From sequence record OZ336094.1: a stretch of DNA of 64,000 nucleotides; one strand, written 5' to 3'. The position numbers and the translations under genes were made by a program. The notes below the pieces were generated by a model. The model was not told the DNA's origin. It saw only the letters and a list, made by a program, of their open reading frames with translations, and did no database searches. Of the stretch, positions 9,319 through 45,515 are shown one piece after another. Within the stretch, counting starts at the first letter, position 1, and every line of letters begins with the position of its first letter. This stretch comes from a phage.

Positions 9319-11091
9319 TTAATAAGAACCAGCAGAAATATTTTCTGGGTTACTTGTGTATTGATCGTAATCGTGAAGTGTAGCTGTTTTAATCTCATAG
9401 AAGAAACTACCTGCTGCACCAGTCTCTGAGAACTCACGGTTCTTTAGAATGTAGCAATATGTGCGGTTACGTTCCATAGGATCTTCAGCTTGTTTATCCC
9501 GCTCCAGCGCAATTGTAATACCAGCACCTTTAGCAAGGAAGCTACTACCCATTGCATCATCTTCTACAATATGTTCATTACTATTGTTAGAAGACTTTTT
9601 AACGTGTGAAATTACAACAATGGTTATTGCGTACTCTTTCATAATGCGTTTCAGCCACGTCGCAAGTTCCTCTTGTTGTGACACGTCCATACCAGAAAGC
9701 AAGTCAGAATAAGGGTCGATAACAAGAATGGTTACTCCGAAATAAATAATCATTTCCAGAACCTTCTCTTTAATCACATCTACGTTAGCTCCACGATCAT
9801 CACAAACATAGAAACGTGGTGTTCCATCTTCCCGTTCGTAAAAATCACGAATCTTTTCTTCATTATCTTTTAAAATCTTTTCCTTCTCTTCTTTCGTTTT
9901 ACGGTGAAGAGGGATATGCAAGAATGAAGACAGTAAGTTACGAGAATACTTCTTATACGTTGCCTCCAAAGATAAAATACCAAGAGTATGTTCTGGGTGT
10001 GCAAGAATAATGTGTTTCGTAATCTCGTTAACCAACAGTGTCTTACCGATACTTGTTTTTGCAAGTATAACAGTAATTTCTTCTTCTACCAAGCCTCCAC
10101 CTAACATATTCGAAGCAACACGCATGAATGGAGGAAGGGTGATCATTTTAGCTTCCAGGCATTCCAAGGCTGCTTCATACAGTACGTTAGAAGCGTAAAC
10201 ACCAGCAGGTGTGTACAGTTTAGCTTTGAAAAAGCGATCAATAAAATGATCAATTTTTCCTTCTACTAGTGCCTGGTTAGGATCTTTAACATCCGTTAGT
10301 TCCATCACGTAAACTTTATTACGTGGTAAGATTTTAACACATTTCTCAACTGCTGCACGTCCAGCTTCATCATTATCCATACATAGAACAATCTTTTTAA
10401 ATTGATCTAAGAATTTATAACGATGTTGAAGCTGCTTATGCAGAGATGTTTCGCCACAAGTACCAGATACTACAGCAGGAACAGGATATTTACCACCCTT
10501 GTTATAATCTTTTAGCATCTGTGTTGCAGCCAGCATATCATGTTCACCACCAACGATTAGAATAGTACCGCTGTGGTTACGATATTTAAACTCACCAAAA
10601 AGATCACAATCCTTTCCTGTTTCACCGATAGGATGTGAGAAATCTTTTGGATCGATACGTTGTTTATACCCAGCAATATTGTAATCTTTAGTTGTAGGGT
10701 ATAGTGTTGAAATTACTTCGCCAGTAGCTTCATCGTACATATAGCGTACACCGAAAGGCTTAGAGATATCTTCACGAATACCGCGATAACCTTTTGGATT
10801 AGTTCCAGTGCTGGCTTTTAGTTTATCATGTACTTCTGGATTAAACTCACTACCCAAGATATCCTCCTCTTCAATTTCTTCGCCGTGTGCATTTAACCAT
10901 TTTTGATCAGGGATAGTAAAGCCACAAGAAAAACAATGTGCGCCTCGATGATCTTCATCGGCATCTAAGCCATATACCATCAAATTGTTTTGTGATCGAT
11001 CACGCCCTCCTTTCATACAACGAGGACACCCAGTATGTCCTTCTTGACTTAAATCAATGTTATACCCATATTTATTTACAACATAAGACAC
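9319..11091 (-). CDS. Primase-helicase (T7 gp4-like): N-terminal zinc-ribbon primase plus DnaB-like helicase
   Basis: Zn-binding CPRC...CFSCG at N-terminus; Walker A AKTSIGKT in C-terminal half; 590 aa. Confidence 0.75.
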   Translation of the reverse strand: MSYVVNKYGYNIDLSQEGHTGCPRCMKGGRDRSQNNLMVYGLDADEDHRGAHCFSCGFTIPDQKWLNAHGEEIEEEDILGSEFNPEVHDKLKASTGTNPKGYRGIREDISKPFGVRYMYDEATGEVISTLYPTTKDYNIAGYKQRIDPKDFSHPIGETGKDCDLFGEFKYRNHSGTILIVGGEHDMLAATQMLKDYNKGGKYPVPAVVSGTCGETSLHKQLQHRYKFLDQFKKIVLCMDNDEAGRAAVEKCVKILPRNKVYVMELTDVKDPNQALVEGKIDHFIDRFFKAKLYTPAGVYASNVLYEAALECLEAKMITLPPFMRVASNMLGGGLVEEEITVILAKTSIGKTLLVNEITKHIILAHPEHTLGILSLEATYKKYSRNLLSSFLHIPLHRKTKEEKEKILKDNEEKIRDFYEREDGTPRFYVCDDRGANVDVIKEKVLEMIIYFGVTILVIDPYSDLLSGMDVSQQEELATWLKRIMKEYAITIVVISHVKKSSNNSNEHIVEDDAMGSSFLAKGAGITIALERDKQAEDPMERNRTYCYILKNREFSETGAAGSFFYEIKTATLHDYDQYTSNPENISAGSY

Positions 11092-11103
11092 ATGATTCTC
11101 CTA

Positions 11104-11373
11104 CTAAAATGATTCGTTTGTCTCCATAATATATTGCATTTCCAAATCTTCCATATGTTTCTTAAATTGGTAAACAATTTCCGATGGGGAAATATCTATA
11201 TCAAAAAGTTCTTTTGTACCAGAATAAAATCTAATACCATCAACAATAAGACCACCATAATAATCCCAATCACTTTCTCGTGAGAAAGGATTAGGTTCTT
11301 CATAATAGTAATCTACTTCAACAATAATAGGTTCTTTATTATCTTGTTTATACTCAAAATCAAAAGTGTTCAT
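11104..11373 (-). CDS. Hypothetical protein, 89 aa
   Basis: Track ORF; acidic; start overlaps upstream gene stop. Confidence 0.4.
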   Translation of the reverse strand: MNTFDFEYKQDNKEPIIVEVDYYYEEPNPFSRESDWDYYGGLIVDGIRFYSGTKELFDIDISPSEIVYQFKKHMEDLEMQYIMETNESF

Positions 11374-23758: not shown

Positions 23759-24475
23759 TTATTTCAGTTTGTAAACAATTACATTTAAACCTTTGTTTAC
23801 TAGAGTTTCTTCGATCATAAGTTTTACAATATTCCAAGAACCTCCAGCCAAACCACAACCAAGCATTGGTAAACCTACAATTTTACCGCCTGAAGATACA
23901 ACATCGTCTCCCATACTATCTAACGCATTGTAGATAGCTTCATAATTCAGGTCACGCTTACCTTCCTCACGACGACTATAACCATATTGTCCATATAAAT
24001 TATAAATTGTCAAATTGTTTTCTGTATACTTGGTAAACGTACCTAATTTTTTATAATCACCACGTTTAGTGGCACAATCTGCTTTAAACGCACCAGGCCA
24101 CTTACTTTTAATTTTTGGTGCAATACCACTACCCATAGTGCAAAAACAGTTACAGCAGTGTGCTATAGCGTCTATATCGCCTCTCTCGGCTGCTGCTAAA
24201 AGATCACCGTATACCTCAATGATACCTGCTGGATAACTTGTTACAATTTCATCTTCCCAGTACATTTTCTCTACACCACCGATCAGTGCAAAGTTTTGTG
24301 TAATGCGATCATCAATATAGTTAAGACCTGAAACATACACAGCATATTCATCCTGTGCTGTAATACCTTGTACACGAATTCTTAAGACACCATCTTTATC
24401 TGTTGCTACACGCCCAAAATCTTTTTCTGTAATATTGGTGATAGGATCTCCGAAAGTCATTACTTTATTAGACAT
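23759..24475 (-). CDS. Macro-domain protein (ADP-ribose binding/processing), start refined
   Basis: Segments DAIAHCCNCFCTMGSGIAPKI and GLPMLGCGLAGGSW resemble macro-domain motifs (VNAAN..GGGV..AI and FP.I.TG.YG.P); internal ATG with RBS aaagggga overlaps PRTase stop. Confidence 0.5.
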   Translation of the reverse strand: MSNKVMTFGDPITNITEKDFGRVATDKDGVLRIRVQGITAQDEYAVYVSGLNYIDDRITQNFALIGGVEKMYWEDEIVTSYPAGIIEVYGDLLAAAERGDIDAIAHCCNCFCTMGSGIAPKIKSKWPGAFKADCATKRGDYKKLGTFTKYTENNLTIYNLYGQYGYSRREEGKRDLNYEAIYNALDSMGDDVVSSGGKIVGLPMLGCGLAGGSWNIVKLMIEETLVNKGLNVIVYKLK

Positions 24476-25325
24476 AATAATCCCCTTTAACATTAGATTT
24501 GTTGATAATGTTGCTTTCAAAAAATTGACGTAGGAAATCAAAGTTCTCTTTATATTTTTCAATATTATTGTAGCCTTCTGCAAGGCAACCAAAGAACAGT
24601 TGTTCTACATAATACAAAGGAAGCTGTGAAAGTGCAATTTTAAAATCAACTTCGCTTTGACTCATTAGATACTTAATAGGACGAACCAAACATTTAGCAT
24701 CAGTTTCTTGCTTAATCATTTTAATAAAAGCTGCCAGGTTATTGATGTAGTTGAAGTTAAGTGCAGCTTCGGTGTTGGCTTCTGTACCTTCATACTTTGC
24801 AAAGTACAGGAAAAACGTATCGTTTTCAACACCTTCTTTGTCTAAAATTTCAATAAGTTTTTCTTCGTGCGTTCCTGTAATATTAACATCATCAATGAAA
24901 ATCAGAGTTTTATTACCCCAGAAATCACGATTGATAGAGAAAGTGTCACCATCGATCAAAGCCTTACGATCTTCTTTGCTAAGAAATCCATAATCATTGA
25001 TATAGCTCACTTTACGATGAACGATATCCCACTCCACGGCTTTACCTCCTTTGATAGAGATTAGGTAGTTGAGGTGATCTACAAAATGTTCAGATAACAC
25101 TGTAGCTGCATTTTTCACATAGTTATATGGAGATGGAATAACAACAAAACTTTCATTTACCAGTCGTTCTTCATACTTGGAAAAGAAACTTTCAGCCAGA
25201 ATGCGCCCCATTCTTTTTGCTGCCTGGTTACTACCAAACTTTAGCTTGGAATAATCTGCAATGTTAAATTTTGCTTCCTTCAGGTTAGTAAAAGTATTAG
25301 CAAAATGTTGAATTTGATTACGCAT
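24468..25325 (-). CDS. Phosphoribosyltransferase (PRTase)-domain protein
   Basis: PRPP-binding-like motif TLIFIDDVNITGTHEE. Confidence 0.55.
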   Translation of the reverse strand: MRNQIQHFANTFTNLKEAKFNIADYSKLKFGSNQAAKRMGRILAESFFSKYEERLVNESFVVIPSPYNYVKNAATVLSEHFVDHLNYLISIKGGKAVEWDIVHRKVSYINDYGFLSKEDRKALIDGDTFSINRDFWGNKTLIFIDDVNITGTHEEKLIEILDKEGVENDTFFLYFAKYEGTEANTEAALNFNYINNLAAFIKMIKQETDAKCLVRPIKYLMSQSEVDFKIALSQLPLYYVEQLFFGCLAEGYNNIEKYKENFDFLRQFFESNIINKSNVKGDYYV

Positions 25326-25974
25326 TAATAAGTTCCTCTTTTTTAAGTTTAGCCAACAAGTCTTCTGGATTAATAATATGACAGAACTTCATCCCTATGT
25401 CAACAGCTTTTCCATCATAAATCAAACTATCTCCAACGTGTAAAATCTCCTCTGGTGCGAGATCAAACGTTACCATTTCATCAAAAGAGAGTTTAAAAAA
25501 CCTGGGATCTGGTTTACACAAGCAAAACTCATCAGAAAAATGCATAAAATCGAATGGTAATTTTGTCAAGCCAGAATATACAGCTAAGAAACTACCAGGT
25601 ACAAAATTGGTATTGCTCTTAATACTCAAAGAATAGGTTGAACTTAGCTCTTCCAACTTCTTGCAAAGTTCAGGATTCAATGTTGGAGGATGTTTTATAA
25701 ACATTGCTAAACAGTCTCTTTTTAACCCATCCACTTTATCAAGATCAATGTTCAAACGAGTAGAAAGTGTTACCCAAGCATCCTTAGACGTTCCACAAAT
25801 GCCTTTTTCTGCTTTTAAATCCAGGAGAGTTTTTACCTCTTTATATACGGTAGCTGCTTCTACCTCAGAACAAGAGGCATACTCGGCAATAACCTTGTTG
25901 CGTTCTTCTGCATACAAAGGATTAGCAGTAATAAGAGTATTCCATACATCAAAAGAAATATGCTTAACAGTCAT
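25318..25974 (-). CDS. HAD-superfamily hydrolase-like protein (start refined)
   Basis: N-terminal ISFDVWNTLI (HAD motif I-like) and C-terminal VGDSLIYDGKA (motif IV GDxxxD); motif I lacks the second Asp. Confidence 0.45.
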   Translation of the reverse strand: MTVKHISFDVWNTLITANPLYAEERNKVIAEYASCSEVEAATVYKEVKTLLDLKAEKGICGTSKDAWVTLSTRLNIDLDKVDGLKRDCLAMFIKHPPTLNPELCKKLEELSSTYSLSIKSNTNFVPGSFLAVYSGLTKLPFDFMHFSDEFCLCKPDPRFFKLSFDEMVTFDLAPEEILHVGDSLIYDGKAVDIGMKFCHIINPEDLLAKLKKEELINA

Positions 25975-25976
25975 TT

Positions 25977-26132
25977 TTAATCCTCCGTCCAAAAGAATAT
26001 CATCTGCTTAATTTTATTGATCTCTTGATGTAGTAACTTTCCAGCATGTGATTGATCTTTAATATTGACAGCAAGAATTTCAAGCTCCGTTAGTTTTTCT
26101 TGGATAGCTTTATATTCATCATCTGTAAGCAT
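25977..26132 (-). CDS. Hypothetical small protein, 51 aa
   Basis: Hand-translated ORF (MLTDDEYKAIQEKLTELEILAV...), RBS aggggaag; below track size cut-off. Confidence 0.35.
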   Translation of the reverse strand: MLTDDEYKAIQEKLTELEILAVNIKDQSHAGKLLHQEINKIKQMIFFWTED

Positions 26133-26143
26133 TTTCTTCCCCT

Positions 26144-26347
26144 TTAGAATGGTAATCTTTGTATGTCACTTATCCCCACACCAAGAAGTCTAGCAATATC
26201 CTTATCTAAAAGCAACTCTTTTTGTTCTAAAATGTTAATCAGATCTCCTAATACTTCTTTAATGTCACGATCATTTTTAGCAACGTGACCACCTGCGGTA
26301 TCAACTTTATCTTTAAAAACAAAATAATGATCCATAATACCCTCCAT
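26144..26347 (-). CDS. Hypothetical protein, 67 aa
   Basis: Track ORF. Confidence 0.4.
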   Translation of the reverse strand: MEGIMDHYFVFKDKVDTAGGHVAKNDRDIKEVLGDLINILEQKELLLDKDIARLLGVGISDIQRLPF

Positions 26348-26352
26348 ATAAA

Positions 26353-26378
26353 TAAAGGAGGCTTTCGCCTCCTTTTAT
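26353..26378 (-). terminator. Terminator hairpin (AAGGAGGC-TTTC-GCCTCCTT) downstream of AAA+ ATPase gene
   Basis: 8-bp stem, tetraloop, T-rich flank. Confidence 0.5.
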
Positions 26379-26381
26379 CAC

Positions 26382-27542
26382 TTAGTAAGAACGACCACCA
26401 AACACATACTCTGTGTAGTTTTTACGTTCTTTGTTTTTAATAACAACTTCAATGTTGTTACCTTTATCATCGGTGAACATAAAGTGATAACCGTCACCAC
26501 CCATTGTACGAATGTGTTTTTCATCATACGTTAGCAAGATACGGTCTACACCCCAGTAGTAGTCACCTTCTTCATCTTTATCTTCTACAGTAACGATCCC
26601 TTCCATTTCAGGAAGATGCTCTTCTCCTGACTTATGATCTACAGCTACAACATAACGATTACCGCTAAACAAACCTTGTGCTGTCATACCGTCAATATCG
26701 GTATCTGACGAAACATCTCCTGTACGATCTACACCGTTAACTTTCAGAAGTTTAACTTCTTTTGCAGCATAGCGGTGTTCAGTAATACTGATACCCATTA
26801 ATGCAAGTGCATCAGAGAATTTGTCATTAGGGTAACGGTTAAGTTCTTCTACTAATGACTGAACAATATCAAAGTTCAAATCCACGGAGAGATTATAAAG
26901 CGTTTCAAAATCTGGTAAGAAGGCTTTGTTCTCCAGATTTTTAGCCAGATAATCATCCATAGTAGCTTTAGGTAGTTTCTTATAGCTAAAACTGTAGAAA
27001 ATACGGCTAGGACGATTACGCAAAAATTCTGATACATAACCATCATTTTTAGTCAATACAAACAGTTTGTCGTAGCCACCAACACCATCCAGCAGGGTAA
27101 GCAAACCATCTTGTGCATCTTTTTCAGCATACAGTTTATCAAATTCATCGATCATAATCATCACAGGTTGTGTGATTTTAGACATAAAGTTGATAAAGCC
27201 TTCACCATTAAAAGCACTACCGATAGAAATAGTAGGAATACCCATTTCACGAAGAGCAGAAGACAGCATTTTAGCTTGCAAAGTTTTACCGCTACCTTTC
27301 GTACCCTCAAGGAGAACACCTGTGTTTTTACCTTTGCGGCTAAGGAACGTCTTGATAATACGTTCTGATTTATCATCAGTATCACCGTATGTTACTGAAG
27401 GGACTTCCATATCGTTTTTAGGATACAGGAAGAACTCGCCACTTTGAGTAACACCTACACCAAAAGTTCCTGCTGGAATTTCTTCAATATCTGTACCAGA
27501 CTTCTGACGCAGGAAGATTTGATTGCCGAATACTGTAAACAT
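26382..27542 (-). CDS. AAA+ ATPase (classical-clade-like), paralog A
   Basis: Walker A GTKGSGKT, Walker B IMIDEFDK, sensor-1 LTKN, SRH-like LRNRPSR; paralogous to 42038..43165. Confidence 0.6.
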   Translation of the reverse strand: MFTVFGNQIFLRQKSGTDIEEIPAGTFGVGVTQSGEFFLYPKNDMEVPSVTYGDTDDKSERIIKTFLSRKGKNTGVLLEGTKGSGKTLQAKMLSSALREMGIPTISIGSAFNGEGFINFMSKITQPVMIMIDEFDKLYAEKDAQDGLLTLLDGVGGYDKLFVLTKNDGYVSEFLRNRPSRIFYSFSYKKLPKATMDDYLAKNLENKAFLPDFETLYNLSVDLNFDIVQSLVEELNRYPNDKFSDALALMGISITEHRYAAKEVKLLKVNGVDRTGDVSSDTDIDGMTAQGLFSGNRYVVAVDHKSGEEHLPEMEGIVTVEDKDEEGDYYWGVDRILLTYDEKHIRTMGGDGYHFMFTDDKGNNIEVVIKNKERKNYTEYVFGGRSY

Positions 27543-27562: not shown

Positions 27563-28033
27563 TTAGTCAGATTCCCAAATGTTGTCTTTCTTAACCCACA
27601 TTCGTTGATTATCTGAACCTCTATAACGTTTCGTTGTTGGTTGATTCATATCATACTTACCATCTATCACTATGTCAACCAGTTTTTTAATTTTTTCTGG
27701 AATTTCTTCAAAAAGATATCCTGTATATAAAACAATATCTTTTTTGTTTCCAAAACAATCTCTTACCTTCTCAAGAACATACTCTACAGTATCAATGTTC
27801 TCTTTGTCAAGAGGTTCACCACCTAAAACTGTTAATCCTTTAATGAAAGGTCGAGATAAATCTTTCAAGATAAGATCTAATGTTTCAGCAGTGAACTCTT
27901 GTCCGTAGTTATACGACCAGGCTTTCTGGTTAAAGCAGCCACGGCAACCGTGGCTACAACCGCTCACCCACAAAGAGCATCTTACACCGTCACCGTTGAG
28001 CATGTCAACAGGTTCATATCCGGCGTAATTCAA
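27563..28033 (-). CDS. nrdG: Anaerobic ribonucleotide reductase activating protein (radical SAM)
   Basis: Cys cluster GCSHGCRGC (CxxxCxxC); 156 aa; immediately downstream of nrdD. Confidence 0.8.
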   Translation of the reverse strand: MNYAGYEPVDMLNGDGVRCSLWVSGCSHGCRGCFNQKAWSYNYGQEFTAETLDLILKDLSRPFIKGLTVLGGEPLDKENIDTVEYVLEKVRDCFGNKKDIVLYTGYLFEEIPEKIKKLVDIVIDGKYDMNQPTTKRYRGSDNQRMWVKKDNIWESD

Positions 28034-29837: not shown

Positions 29838-29872
29838 CGTGGAAAATAAAAGCCAGCTTAATGCTGGCTTTA
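29838..29872 (-). terminator. Intrinsic terminator (AGCCAGC-TTAAT-GCTGGCT + T-run) upstream of nrdD
   Basis: 7-bp stem followed on minus strand by tttatttt. Confidence 0.6.
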
Positions 29873-41588: not shown

Positions 41589-42026
41589 ATGAGTAAAACA
41601 AACGCAATCGCAGATAAAGCAACGGATGTACTTCTGAACATGGTTAACGTCACTATTCAAACAATGAGTGATGTTGTGGAGTTTGGAAAACAACAAATTC
41701 CAGAAGTAATCCATCAATTGTTAGTGTGGAAAGCAGTATCCGCAGGTTTATGGCAACTTTTTAGTATTTGCTTTATGTTTATTACTTTTATTGCTGTGCG
41801 GAACCTCGTAAAAGCAATTAAAGATAAAGAATGCCTGTGGTCACGAGATCGCTATGGTGAAGTATCTGCTTTACCTATTGTTGGCCTTGTTGTCTGTGCT
41901 TTCTTTTTCTTTTTAGGACTTGTTATTTTCTTTTCGAATTTTGATTGGCTAAAAATCATTATTGCACCAAAAGTGTATCTGATTGAATTTGCTGCTGATT
42001 TAATTCGTTCATCTCAACAAAAATAA
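41589..42026 (+). CDS. Hypothetical membrane protein, 145 aa
   Basis: RBS gtgaggaat; three or four hydrophobic segments. Confidence 0.5.
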   Translation: MSKTNAIADKATDVLLNMVNVTIQTMSDVVEFGKQQIPEVIHQLLVWKAVSAGLWQLFSICFMFITFIAVRNLVKAIKDKECLWSRDRYGEVSALPIVGLVVCAFFFFLGLVIFFSNFDWLKIIIAPKVYLIEFAADLIRSSQQK

Positions 42027-42037
42027 AAGGGGTTAAA

Positions 42038-43165
42038 ATGAAATACACGATTTATGGTGATATTGTAAGTGTAAATAAAGATATGGGCGTGGAATCTAAC
42101 TATCTTCCACCTGGATTCTATACTGTTAGTCGTGATCCCCTTGGCAATTACTTTTTAAGCCGTGGTAATCTAACAGGTGTACCGGATGTTCTGTATGGTG
42201 AAACAGAAAAACGAGCAAATCACGTTATTCGTACATTCCATCGCCGGAGTGCACAAGGTAAAAATACAGGTTTGCTCCTGACAGGCACTAAGGGCAGTGG
42301 TAAAACTATGTTAGCCAAACTCATTAGTCGTGACCTTGTAGAAGAAGGTATTCCAACTATTATGGTTACTCAAGCCTACAGTGATGCTAATTTCATTGAA
42401 CTTATTAGCAAGATCACAGACAAAGCAGTGATTATTTTTGATGAATTTGATAAAGTATATGAGAAGAAACAAGATCAAGAAGCACTTCTCACTTTGTTAG
42501 ATGGTACTGGCAGTGGTAATAAACTGTTTATTCTAACTAAAAACAGTGGCTTTATCTCTGAATTCTTTCTAAATCGTCCTAGTCGTGTGTTTTATAATTT
42601 TAATTATGATAAAATCTCACTAGAAACTATGATTGACTATTTAGATAAAAACCTGGATAACAAAGCACACTTTGATAATTTCCAAAGGCTTTGGGATGTA
42701 AGTTTAGAGTTGTCCTTTGATGTGATCCAAGGTATAGTAGAAGAACTTAATTTCTACCCTGATTTATCCTTTAAAGAATGCATCTCTATGATGGGCGTTT
42801 CTTTGGGTGGTGGTAATAAGTGGGATATCAGCAGCGTTGTTATTAATGGGAAACTTCAGAAAGTTAGCTGGGTATCTAGTTGGCATAACTTCACACCTGC
42901 AATCTTTTTAGGTGGCTCGTGCACACTAGACGTGTACTTGTCATCTCCAAGTGATGCAGACTCTAAAGAAGCCCTTGCTAATAGCTCTTACGTGGTTTTT
43001 GATGATGAAGGAGATGCTCGAATTCCATTGAATGCGACAAAAATGAAAGCAGATCTTATTACAGGCGGTAAAATCGTTGTGTTTAGTGATGATCCAGAAG
43101 ATTCTTTCCGTATTGTTCTGGAACCAACTATCACCAATGGTGCAACTTTGGCAAGCGTGTTTTAA
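42038..43165 (+). CDS. AAA+ ATPase, paralog B
   Basis: Walker A GTKGSGKT, Walker B IIFDEFDK, LTKN, LNRPSR; about 45-50% identity by eye to 26382..27542. Confidence 0.6.
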   Translation: MKYTIYGDIVSVNKDMGVESNYLPPGFYTVSRDPLGNYFLSRGNLTGVPDVLYGETEKRANHVIRTFHRRSAQGKNTGLLLTGTKGSGKTMLAKLISRDLVEEGIPTIMVTQAYSDANFIELISKITDKAVIIFDEFDKVYEKKQDQEALLTLLDGTGSGNKLFILTKNSGFISEFFLNRPSRVFYNFNYDKISLETMIDYLDKNLDNKAHFDNFQRLWDVSLELSFDVIQGIVEELNFYPDLSFKECISMMGVSLGGGNKWDISSVVINGKLQKVSWVSSWHNFTPAIFLGGSCTLDVYLSSPSDADSKEALANSSYVVFDDEGDARIPLNATKMKADLITGGKIVVFSDDPEDSFRIVLEPTITNGATLASVF

Positions 43166-43181
43166 GTAAGCCAGCAAATAA

Positions 43182-43206
43182 AAACCCGCTCCGGCGGGTT
43201 TTCTTG
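43182..43206 (+). terminator. Intrinsic terminator (ACCCGC-TCCG-GCGGGT + T-run)
   Basis: GC stem followed by tttcttgtatt. Confidence 0.55.
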
Positions 43207-43239: not shown

Positions 43240-44412
43240 ATGACAGCACCAAAATCATGGGAACAATATAAAGAAGAATTAACACCCCTTGCTAAAAATC
43301 GCAATATTCAAATCCTGGGTTATGTTGGTGAATGGAAAGGGAACAAGACTAAACTTAAGCTATCTTGCCCTAAACATGGAGAGTGGAACACCACGAACAT
43401 TAATGATTTTAAGAAGGGACGTGGTTGTCCTATCTGTTCTGGTAAGAAGCCGTTAACATGGGAAACAGAATTGCCGATCTTGGAAGAGATAGCACAGAAG
43501 AGGGGGTATCAGGTGTTAGGGTACGTGGGAGAATGGAAAGGGAATAAAACAAAACTTGATTTGTTGTGTCATTGTGGTAATAAATGGGATACTACAAGTA
43601 TTAACAATTTTAAACGTGGTAGCGGTTGTCCACAATGTAAGAGGGAGAGACAAACAATGTCCGACGATCAACATATTGCAGATTTCTTTTCTACAGGGGA
43701 ATTTAAGGAAGGCACTATCTTCACCAATACAGGGAAACGTAACAAGCGTGATACAGTATGGATGGTTGAGTGTCCTGTTTGCTCCCATGATGAATATGTT
43801 CAAGCAGGTGTTTGTGATGGTAAATTTTACTCTGCAGGACATAACCTTAAACAAGGGTATATTCCGTGTCGTTGTGGGAACTATCAGTATACAGAAGACC
43901 AGATCACCTATAGGGTAAAAAAGGAAGTAGAAGGGAAAGGGTATGTCTGGGTAGATTGGATTACCAAACCCTCTTCTATAGGTAAGTTTAAATATCTTTG
44001 TCTTGTGCATGGTGAGCAGATAGGGAGTGCTCGTAATTTATTAAGCCTCGGTCAAGGTTGTCCACAGTGTGCTGGTCATAATCAACAGCAATTATATATT
44101 AATATTGTTAAAGATAATGATATTATAGTTGCTCTTAAGTTTGGTATATCTAAAGATAGCGATAGACGATTAAACGGTCAAAATAGCCGTAATCTGTTTT
44201 TTATGGAGCGTATTTGTTTATATGATTTTAGCACAGTGAAACAATGTAGGGCTGCTGAAAGAGCTATAAAGAAAAAATTAAAAACTGGTATTTTAACGGC
44301 AAGAGAGTTGAAAGATGGTTATACAGAAACAGTAAGTGTTTCTGATTTGGAAAATCTTCAAAAAATTATTACACAATATGGTGGCAAATTAGTATACAGT
44401 AAGGAGATGTAA
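43240..44412 (+). CDS. Zinc-ribbon repeat protein with C-terminal GIY-YIG-like (T5orf172-type) domain; possible nuclease / homing-endonuclease-like
   Basis: Repeated modules LGYVGEWKGNKTKL..C..G.W.T..IN.FK.G.GCP.C; C-terminus LYINIVKDNDIIVALKFGISKDSDRR resembles GIY...YIG spacing. Confidence 0.35.
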   Translation: MTAPKSWEQYKEELTPLAKNRNIQILGYVGEWKGNKTKLKLSCPKHGEWNTTNINDFKKGRGCPICSGKKPLTWETELPILEEIAQKRGYQVLGYVGEWKGNKTKLDLLCHCGNKWDTTSINNFKRGSGCPQCKRERQTMSDDQHIADFFSTGEFKEGTIFTNTGKRNKRDTVWMVECPVCSHDEYVQAGVCDGKFYSAGHNLKQGYIPCRCGNYQYTEDQITYRVKKEVEGKGYVWVDWITKPSSIGKFKYLCLVHGEQIGSARNLLSLGQGCPQCAGHNQQQLYINIVKDNDIIVALKFGISKDSDRRLNGQNSRNLFFMERICLYDFSTVKQCRAAERAIKKKLKTGILTARELKDGYTETVSVSDLENLQKIITQYGGKLVYSKEM

Positions 44413-44964
44413 ATGCGGATTACTGATAAGTATGTGTTCTTCTTCTCGGCAAAAGATGAATTTAGCAACTGGTATCTATCATCTTTTATTGAACCTTTAG
44501 CTCCCAAGTATAATAATTCTATTACAAGTTCTGTTGAATTTACTTGTGTGGAACAATATATGATGTGGAGAAAAGCATGTTTGTTTTATGATTACAACAT
44601 TGCATCTTCTATTTTAACCGGAGATCTAAGATATACAGGAGAAAAAGAACAGGCATATTATAAGCGACTAGGTAGATTAGTTAAAGATTACGATGAAGCT
44701 ACTTGGACTTCTTTACGGGAGAAGATTGTCAAGCGTGGTTTGTATCTTAAATACACACAAAATGAAGATCTCAAAAATAAACTTATAACCTACGCAGATA
44801 AGGAGTTCGTAGAGGCAAGCCCTTATGATTCTATTTATGGTATCAAAATGGGGATGTGGGATCGTGATGTGGAAAATAAGGACTGTTGGAAAGGACAAAA
44901 TCTTTTAGGAAAATGGCATACAGACCTTGCTGTTTATCTAAAAACACAATCTGATATTTCCTGA
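44413..44964 (+). CDS. NADAR (YbiA-like, DUF1768) domain protein
   Basis: FFFSAKDEFSNWYLSSF, EQYMMWRKACLF and SIYGIKMGMWDR align with YbiA motifs (FYSTSDDYGDFSNF, EHYFQAQKF, DAYWGDGGHG). Confidence 0.55.
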   Translation: MRITDKYVFFFSAKDEFSNWYLSSFIEPLAPKYNNSITSSVEFTCVEQYMMWRKACLFYDYNIASSILTGDLRYTGEKEQAYYKRLGRLVKDYDEATWTSLREKIVKRGLYLKYTQNEDLKNKLITYADKEFVEASPYDSIYGIKMGMWDRDVENKDCWKGQNLLGKWHTDLAVYLKTQSDIS

Positions 44965-45180
44965 TATTTTGAAAATTTTTATTTTTATAAAAAGGGGTGT
45001 GGGTTTCATGTACGGAAATTCACCCTCTGCACAGTATATCCAGAGTAAGTAGTATTCTACACCCTGTTAATAAAGTATTTAATTTGTTTGTTGGACTATG
45101 GTATCTGATCTTTAAAAGACATACTATCTCTTAACTACTACTTATAACAGAACAGTAAAATCATTTTTATAAAAAGTACA

Positions 45181-45382
45181 AAATTATTTAAAGTTTTTAC
45201 AGATTTTTGGGTACAAATTTTGAAAATGAAAAGTTCAAGTTTGGTCAAAATTATTTAAAGTTTTTGTACGTATTTCTGTCCAGATTTTGAAAATGAAAAC
45301 TTCAATTTTTTAAAAATTCCCCAGTTTATTTAAAGTTTTTTTGCCTTTTTCCGTAGAAAAATCAAAAATGAAAAGTTCAATT
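45181..45382. repeat. Three imperfect direct repeats of about 66-76 bp, each with TATTTAAAGTTTTT and TTGAAAATGAAAAGTTCAA blocks
   Basis: Seen directly; conserved blocks with 34-37 nt spacing; ORF-free AT-rich DNA. Confidence 0.7.
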
Positions 45383-45401
45383 TCGTGTTTTTATAGGTGT
45401 G

Positions 45402-45515
45402 TTAATGAGAATCATTTTCGTTTGTAAATGAGAATCATTATCATTTAACTATGTAAGTGATAATCATTCTCAGTAAGAGAATGAGAATCATTAGCAAATG
45501 AGAATTTTCTCATTT
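45402..45515. promoter_or_regulatory. Array of five or more palindromic AATGA-GAA-TCATT boxes (Fur-box-like)
   Basis: AATGAGAATCATT x3, GTGATAATCATTCTC, and perfect palindrome ATGAGAATTTTCTCAT; one base from the Fur core AATGATAATCATT. Confidence 0.5.

Follow-up and report, generated by a model that had tools for sequence, protein, structure and literature searches.

Why does a phage keep two diverged copies of an AAA+ ATPase, far apart and on opposite strands? The question is raised by a 64,000-nt stretch of phage DNA (sequence record OZ336094.1; hereafter the window), whose sequence matches that of Escherichia phage Paula (LR865361.1) at 100% identity; Paula is phi92-like, infects E. coli and belongs to the genus Justusliebigvirus in the Stephanstirmvirinae. 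The window reads on the reverse strand of the Paula record, and window position x converts to LR865361.1 coordinate 85200 - x. The original prediction had proposed two ORFs of 375 and 386 amino acids, about 15 kb apart on opposite strands; both were found precisely there, on opposite strands and with a measured spacing of 14.5 kb. We denote them A and B:

42038-43165, plus strand: ORF A, 375 amino acids, PAULA_0097, orthologue of phi92 gp221
26382-27542, minus strand: ORF B, 386 amino acids, PAULA_0128, orthologue of phi92 gp190

Both carry the deposited label 'putative ATPase or Zn metalloprotease', and both match the family phrog_2376 ('ATPase'): residues 1-367 of A align with positions 1-357 of the 363-position profile (E = 6.6e-108) and residues 1-376 of B with positions 2-359 (E = 3.5e-104). 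This family, with phi92 gp221 and gp190, is the family to which A and B themselves belong, and we saw no difference from it. Public annotation and PHROGs thus already list both genes as ATPases, and the pair is a set of lineage-specific paralogues in a known phage AAA family. Our literature search found no paper on the function of A or B, on phrog_2376 or on the paralogue pair.

To describe the relationship between the two proteins, we aligned them. BLASTP pairs residues 3-256 of A with residues 2-253 of B at 119/254 identities (47%) and 70% positives (E = 1e-81), whereas an end-to-end comparison yields about 37% (136 identities among 363 aligned positions). The proposal that the two share about half of their residues therefore applies to the first two thirds and overstates the whole. 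The match, well above chance, takes in the N-terminal beta domain, the entire AAA core and the helical lid; a similarity limited to generic P-loop motifs, the outcome named in advance as a refutation, is therefore not what the alignment shows. Both copies contain GTKGSGKT, LTKN and NRPSR as predicted; the predicted Walker B pattern, (I/M)I(F/D)DEFDK, was slightly mis-registered, as A has VIIFDEFDK and B has MIMIDEFDK. A and B are true full-length paralogues, as had been proposed; both keep all ATPase motifs and are under strong purifying selection (see below).

AlphaFold2 models, built on 130-141 homologues, are confident for both A (pLDDT 92.5, pTM 0.83) and B (pLDDT 87.8). In both, the parts follow in the same order: an N-terminal beta domain, a YG linker, a long helix, the AAA large subdomain, a four-helix lid and a beta-rich C-terminal domain of 120-130 residues that ends in a short flexible tail. 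The features are as follows, with the kind of evidence in brackets:

42038-42172, plus strand: A, N-terminal five-strand beta domain, residues ~1-45 (AlphaFold2 secondary structure; conserved P24, Y28, L40, Y53 and G54)
42194-42199, plus strand: A, near-invariant YG motif, 3' of the N-terminal beta domain (conservation)
42284-42307, plus strand: A, Walker A GTKGSGKT, residues 83-90 (G83, G86, G88 and K89 invariant, n=130)
42371-42385, plus strand: A, pore-loop-1-like QAYSD (Y114), between beta2 and alpha2 (conservation of the aromatic column)
42428-42454, plus strand: A, Walker B VIIFDEFDK (D135, E136 and K139 invariant)
42485-42505, plus strand: A, LLTLLDG motif (L151, D155 and G156 invariant; p97 D2 alignment)
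42533-42586, plus strand: A, second region of homology, with sensor-1 N169 (LTKN) and R180 and R183 (NRPSR) (invariant, n=130)
42620-42793, plus strand: A, four-helix lid, residues ~195-252 (F227, D228 and N238 invariant; no conserved sensor-2 arginine)
42806-43162, plus strand: A, fast-evolving beta-rich C-terminal domain, residues 257-375, with aromatic tail ...ASVF (AlphaFold2, profiles, dN)
27282-27305, minus strand: B, Walker A GTKGSGKT, residues 80-87 (motif location)
27204-27218, minus strand: B, pore-loop-1-like SAFNG (F111) (motif location)
27135-27161, minus strand: B, Walker B MIMIDEFDK (motif location)
27003-27056, minus strand: B, sensor-1 LTKN and the NRPSR arginines (conservation, motif location)
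26385-26783, minus strand: B, beta-rich C-terminal domain, residues 254-386, with an insertion and a GGRSY extension (AlphaFold2, profile comparison)

The catalytic residues are invariant both in the 130- and 141-member alignments and in the two copies: the three glycines and the lysine of Walker A, the Asp-Glu pair and following lysine of Walker B, the L, D and G of LLTLLDG (the counterpart of the 'LLxEMDG' element of classical AAA proteins), the sensor-1 asparagine of LTKN and both arginines of NRPSR. Y186, F227-D228 and N238 (A numbering) are likewise invariant and common to both. In the beta2-alpha2 loop, 86% of 130 family members have an aromatic residue in one column, usually with Gly or Asp two positions on; that column holds Y114 in A and F111 in B, in a pore loop 1 that is about 6-7 residues shorter than that of p97. 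Sensor 2 is absent, because the family alignment holds no conserved arginine where lid helix alpha7 begins, the place being taken by F227-D228; the sole arginine-rich column of the lid (239) falls where the helix ends, and A has Phe there. Pfam AAA (PF00004) matches A with 38.9 bits and B with 29.4 bits against a cutoff of 21.2, and LTKN...NRPSR aligns in identical register with ATN...RPGR of p97 D2. Because they combine Walker A and B, sensor 1, the arginines, the pore loop and a missing sensor 2, with the p97 D2 register in agreement, A and B can be assigned to the classical AAA clade. Membership of this clade would lead one to expect ring assembly and ATP hydrolysis of both.

Structural comparison agrees with this placement. 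The nearest folds are Bcs1, NSF-D2 and Rix7; Bcs1 is the top match for both copies (by Foldseek for B), over the AAA module alone (~208 residues), and the AAA modules of FtsH and FtsHi, AFG2 and Pex1/Pex6 are among the neighbours. Like Bcs1, NSF D2, p97/Cdc48 D2, Rix7/NVL and the FtsH AAA module, A and B have Walker A and B, the sensor-1 asparagine, two arginines in the second region of homology (SRH), an LLxxxDG element, an aromatic pore loop 1 and no sensor-2 arginine. They differ from these proteins in sequence (13-21% identity) and in that both pore loops are shorter, and the N-terminal five-strand and C-terminal beta domains are specific to the A/B family. They have neither a second AAA ring nor a protease domain; in contrast to Bcs1, there is neither a transmembrane segment nor a BCS1_N domain (no Pfam BCS1_N match). 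The likeness to bacterial Trip13/Pch2 of CBASS (PDB 6p8v) is no better than that to other members of the clade, and 6p8v is not among the PDB sequence matches of A or B. An NCBIfam search of A and B gave sub-threshold P-loop matches only.

In contrast to the motor, the C-terminal domains have diverged so far that BLAST finds no similarity between the last 120-130 residues of A and B. Their homology emerges from profiles: a direct comparison of the A-clade and B-clade domains gives 72% probability (E = 3e-5), comparisons through an intermediate clade of 368-residue proteins give 94.5% and 95.9%, and in the joint alignment the strand patterns match and an N-G is invariant. We regard the two domains as homologous at the profile level only; their identity is about 18%. 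Searched against 1.84 billion representative proteins, the C-domain profile found only its own subfamily and low-complexity matches in giant proteins, and against PDB sequences it found nothing below E = 0.2. One protein that resembled a stand-alone C-domain (P0205) starts at the internal methionine of '...LMGI...' and was rejected as a fragment. Within the A clade, identity is 28-68% in the C-domain compared with 57-84% in the motor; the rate of evolution of the C-terminal domain is 3-5 times that of the core.

The extreme C-terminus was a separate observation: of 200 family members (from the set P0001-P0204), 117 end in an aromatic residue, against a background of 11%, with Y-x-[WY]-x-x-A-F as a recurrent tail pattern. 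A ends in ...ASVF (43150-43162) and B in ...YTEYVF followed by the GGRSY extension (26385-26420). These tails look like the docking tails of other AAA ATPases.

Selection on the two genes was assessed by Nei-Gojobori counts. Against other Justusliebigvirus genomes, A shows 14-18 synonymous and 0-1 nonsynonymous differences and B 13-21.5 and 1.5-2.5, with dN/dS at or below 0.04 for both, indicating strong purifying selection on each. Against Klebsiella-type relatives, dN reaches 0.40-0.47 in the C-terminal domain, compared with 0.09-0.14 in the remainder; dN/dS of the C-terminal domain stays below 1 (~0.25-0.45), with dS near saturation. Asymmetry in motor divergence is almost nil, with one A-specific versus three B-specific replacements at conserved family positions. 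Both copies are functional as far as sequence tells, and we are highly confident of the joint statement that A and B are paralogues, belong to the classical clade and both work. The motor is nearly unchanged and the C-domain diverges rapidly, so that the copies may recognize different clients or partners. Divergence concentrated in the C-domain is the pattern expected if partner or substrate specificity diverged, which makes such a divergence between A and B plausible.

The family to which the pair belongs is among the more widely conserved genes of unknown function in large lytic phages. Members were found in 380 isolate-phage records and in at least 366 confirmed IMG/VR stretches, spanning the Stephanstirmvirinae, Phapecoctavirus, GAP32/BF/CBB-like jumbo phages, Aeromonas, Proteus, Acinetobacter, Lactococcus and Lactobacillus phages, Herelleviridae, crAss-like phages and many metagenomic contigs. 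With A alone or B alone as the query, the IMG/VR scan returned four loci each. Two Lactobacillus phages, LpeD (NC_048677.1) and SAC12B (MK504446.1), each have two separate places with family members, which suggests independent duplications elsewhere in the family.

In a neighbour-joining tree of 122 non-redundant sequences over 250 core columns, A and B fall into separate, strongly supported clades, with bootstrap values of 99% for clade A and 100% for clade B; the 368-residue clade and a jumbo-phage clade each reach 100%. A, B, the 368-residue clade and one further sequence (P0030) group together at 74%, whereas a grouping of B with the jumbo-phage clade receives 0%. Branching among A, B and the 368-residue clade has no fixed order (A with 368, 42%; B with 368, 52%). 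The three have in common five derived residues at otherwise conserved positions and form one subfamily in phages of roughly 150 kb. The 368-residue clade is known solely from metagenomic contigs of ~154 kb, such as L003 (Logan SRR10882646, 154 kb; gene at 10001-11107), where the gene is the only copy within the 21-kb locus examined; its members are intermediate, with 50-56% core identity to A and to B each.

The distribution of the two types dates their separation. Phapecoctavirus orthologues of A lie at the same genomic position and have 64.5% full-length identity to it; as A and B are only 47% identical, the A/B split predates that between Justusliebigvirus and Phapecoctavirus. The A type is present in all Stephanstirmvirinae examined, whereas B is kept in Justusliebigvirus and the Klebsiella-type relatives. 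Phapecoctavirus has a single copy, of the A type, and Pseudomonas phage PsgM04F has the A type alone, with one place per record. Some 60 isolate records hold the B type, in essentially the same genera as the A type, and about 70 further records hold A only; among the matches listed, every B-type isolate record has two places, and B never occurs without A. Because the genera with B also carry A, and about 70 records have A only, A is the core copy and B the accessory one. The position of B is old, because a distant B-type gene (57% identity) in a metagenomic phage occupies, as B does, a UvrD-YqeY ... TerC-TelA block. In Phapecoctavirus, nrdD-nrdG is followed directly by a homologue of the 63-amino-acid gene that lies 3' of B in Paula. 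Loss of B in Phapecoctavirus is the simplest reading, although B could instead have come from a sister lineage.

A and B each close their own transcription unit. A ends a five-gene unit on the plus strand, directly 3' of a protein with two transmembrane segments (two-TM protein), and B ends an nrdD-nrdG-B unit, with a HAD/PRTase/Macro/TerC block downstream. The units are bounded by these terminators:

43181-43202, plus strand: strong intrinsic terminator, 16 nt 3' of the A stop codon (LR865361.1 annotates the same terminator)
26354-26375, minus strand: intrinsic terminator, 7 nt 3' of the B stop codon (the LR865361.1 annotation agrees)
29849-29871: terminator upstream of nrdD, which together with 26354-26375 bounds the nrdD-nrdG-B unit

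The original prediction had stressed that the two genes lie in different contexts. Their neighbours do differ in Paula; the argument is weaker than proposed, because the nrdDG adjacency is limited to one genus and the membrane protein beside A is not constant. B adjoins nrdDG in Justusliebigvirus only, and we rejected a link between them, as the adjacency is missing in the Klebsiella-type relatives and at the distant B-type locus. We likewise rejected the idea that A has a fixed partner in the membrane: the two-TM protein is absent 5' of A in phAPEC8 and non-adjacent in the phage with the 368-residue homologue. Doubled in a Klebsiella-type relative but replaced in phAPEC8, it is not an obligate partner of A. 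The two-TM protein belongs to phrog_3054 (41589-42026, plus strand in the window); the Klebsiella-type relative has two tandem paralogues (L013, 9089-9580 and 9611-9985), phAPEC8 has in its place an unrelated protein with an N-terminal signal peptide (MKKLILVTLLATVSFTTYAQ; L002, 4645-5001), and the phage with the 368-residue homologue has two phrog_3054 copies, 5-6 kb downstream of the ATPase.

The block 3' of B (23759-26335, minus strand) comprises the 63-amino-acid protein (gp189), a HAD hydrolase, a ComF-like PRTase (PF15610) and a Macro protein, and then TerC. This gp189-HAD-PRTase-Macro ... TerC arrangement (L006, L016, L017 and L007) is kept both in Klebsiella-type relatives and in Phapecoctavirus, which has no B.

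To survey neighbours more widely, ORFs were called in 80 diverse IMG/VR loci, which are not phylogenetically independent, and clustered by BLASTP. No neighbour is constant across the 80 loci. The recurrent ones, at varying distances, are Macro-like genes (17/80, counted within 6 kb on the same strand as the ATPase), NAMPT (12/80) and NadM-Nudix (9/80), all of them auxiliary, NAD-related genes. These neighbours place the family in auxiliary or early regions and say little about mechanism.

Taken together, these data lead us to the following model. A and B arose inside a subfamily of enterobacterial phages of roughly 150 kb, either by duplication or by exchange among near relatives, at a time that precedes the parting of Justusliebigvirus and Phapecoctavirus. 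Each protein would assemble into a ring and burn ATP through Walker A and B, the sensor-1 asparagine and two trans-acting arginines, with the aromatic residue of the short pore loop (Y114 in A, F111 in B) taking hold of a client protein for remodelling. Client or partner specificity, now different in A and B, may be set by the C-terminal domain and its tail. As a whole, two separately terminated, functional classical-clade paralogues that remodel different clients is the explanation towards which we lean; that A and B do act on different clients is, taken by itself, a tentative proposal. Subfunctionalization, which the original prediction had put forward for the retention of two copies, is only one of several readings.

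Paralogous AAA pairs such as Pex1/Pex6, AFG2A/AFG2B in 55LCC and Yta10/Yta12 build hetero-hexamers, and A and B resemble them in being two diverged motor paralogues in one genome. The two could similarly co-assemble into one hetero-oligomeric ring and act as one machine, as in Pex1/Pex6, AFG2A/AFG2B and Rpt1-6. The constant company of A in the ~60 B-type records among the matches listed would fit such a ring, as would the high conservation of motor and lid surfaces between the copies. However, A works alone in Phapecoctavirus and in PsgM04F, the catalytic sites are complete in both copies where obligate hetero-rings often degrade one, and the genes sit in separate transcription units on opposite strands; we consider a hetero-ring unlikely. 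Those same terminator-bounded units, together with a motor almost unchanged in both copies, could instead mean that A and B have one biochemical activity and one target in common and are split by time or condition, for example B with the anaerobic nrdDG genes and A with another early operon. We doubt such a regulatory partition, against which stand C-domains that are ~18% identical and each under purifying selection in its own clade, implying distinct constraints, and the loss of the nrdDG adjacency in the Klebsiella-type relatives and at the distant B-type locus. Counter-defence, also suggested in the original prediction, gained no direct support: the best PADLOC match (E = 8.5e-4, 16.9 bits) covers the P-loop region only and is at noise level, and no meaningful match to Trip13/Pch2 was obtained. 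Its sole hint is that family members often lie among auxiliary genes (NAMPT, NadM-Nudix and Macro) in other phages. It is improbable that the pair forms a counter-defence unfoldase of two specificities, in which the C-domain and aromatic tail select the client and each copy targets a different host protein; by analogy with Trip13, which resets HORMA proteins, host immune or stress complexes might then be disassembled.

Two other alternatives concern DNA replication and proteolysis. As accessory ATPases of DNA replication or recombination, they would resemble helicase loaders, clamp loaders or initiators; the NCBIfam models for Hda, IstB, DnaC-like and Orc1/Cdc6 proteins score 15-30 bits against cutoffs of 181-215, and the sensor-2 arginine looked for in those clades is not conserved in A and B. 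We hold this assignment to be rather improbable. The deposited annotations imply FtsH-like ATP-dependent zinc metalloproteases ('putative ATPase or Zn metalloprotease' and 'FtsH-like protease' in LR865361.1 and MZ501100.1), and the AAA modules of FtsH and FtsHi are indeed among the structural neighbours. Yet HExxH and HxxEH are absent in A and B, Pfam gives no Peptidase_M41 match at E up to 1, and there is no membrane anchor: the maximum 19-residue Kyte-Doolittle mean is ~1.0 in both, and the N-terminus is a soluble beta domain. The C-domain is beta-rich and has no PDB sequence match. The protease part of this reading is refuted, leaving it practically no probability. The label is wrong because neither protein has a protease domain, and in practice 'Zn metalloprotease / FtsH-like protease' should be dropped from public records.

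The case of A and B is a real, old duplication, tidy but fairly ordinary. Its value lies in this correction of annotation and in an experimental handle on a widespread phage gene, since two intact, diverged copies here and one in sister genera amount to a natural experiment on C-domain recognition and on the role of the family.

Some minor features adjoin the two genes. An 11-of-12 sigma-70-like site (TTGACA, 17-nt spacer, TATGAT) lies at 27650-27678 (minus strand), inside nrdG and ~108 nt 5' of the B start; it could be a candidate internal promoter, giving B an expression separate from that of nrdDG, although counts of sigma-70-like promoters in the A and B regions are not above shuffled expectation. 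On the plus strand 3' of the A terminator (43240-44964), a 390-amino-acid protein with three CapR homology domains and a T5orf172 domain (phrog_681, 'endonuclease') is followed by a 183-amino-acid NADAR-domain protein, and both genes also adjoin the A orthologue in phAPEC8. Non-coding tandem repeats follow 3' of the NADAR gene, 67 nt x 2 (82% match) at 45179-45309 and 23 nt x 2 at 45400-45446. In phage alia, repeat_regions are annotated at the equivalent position, and the repeats at 45179-45446 may be a regulatory or origin-like region.
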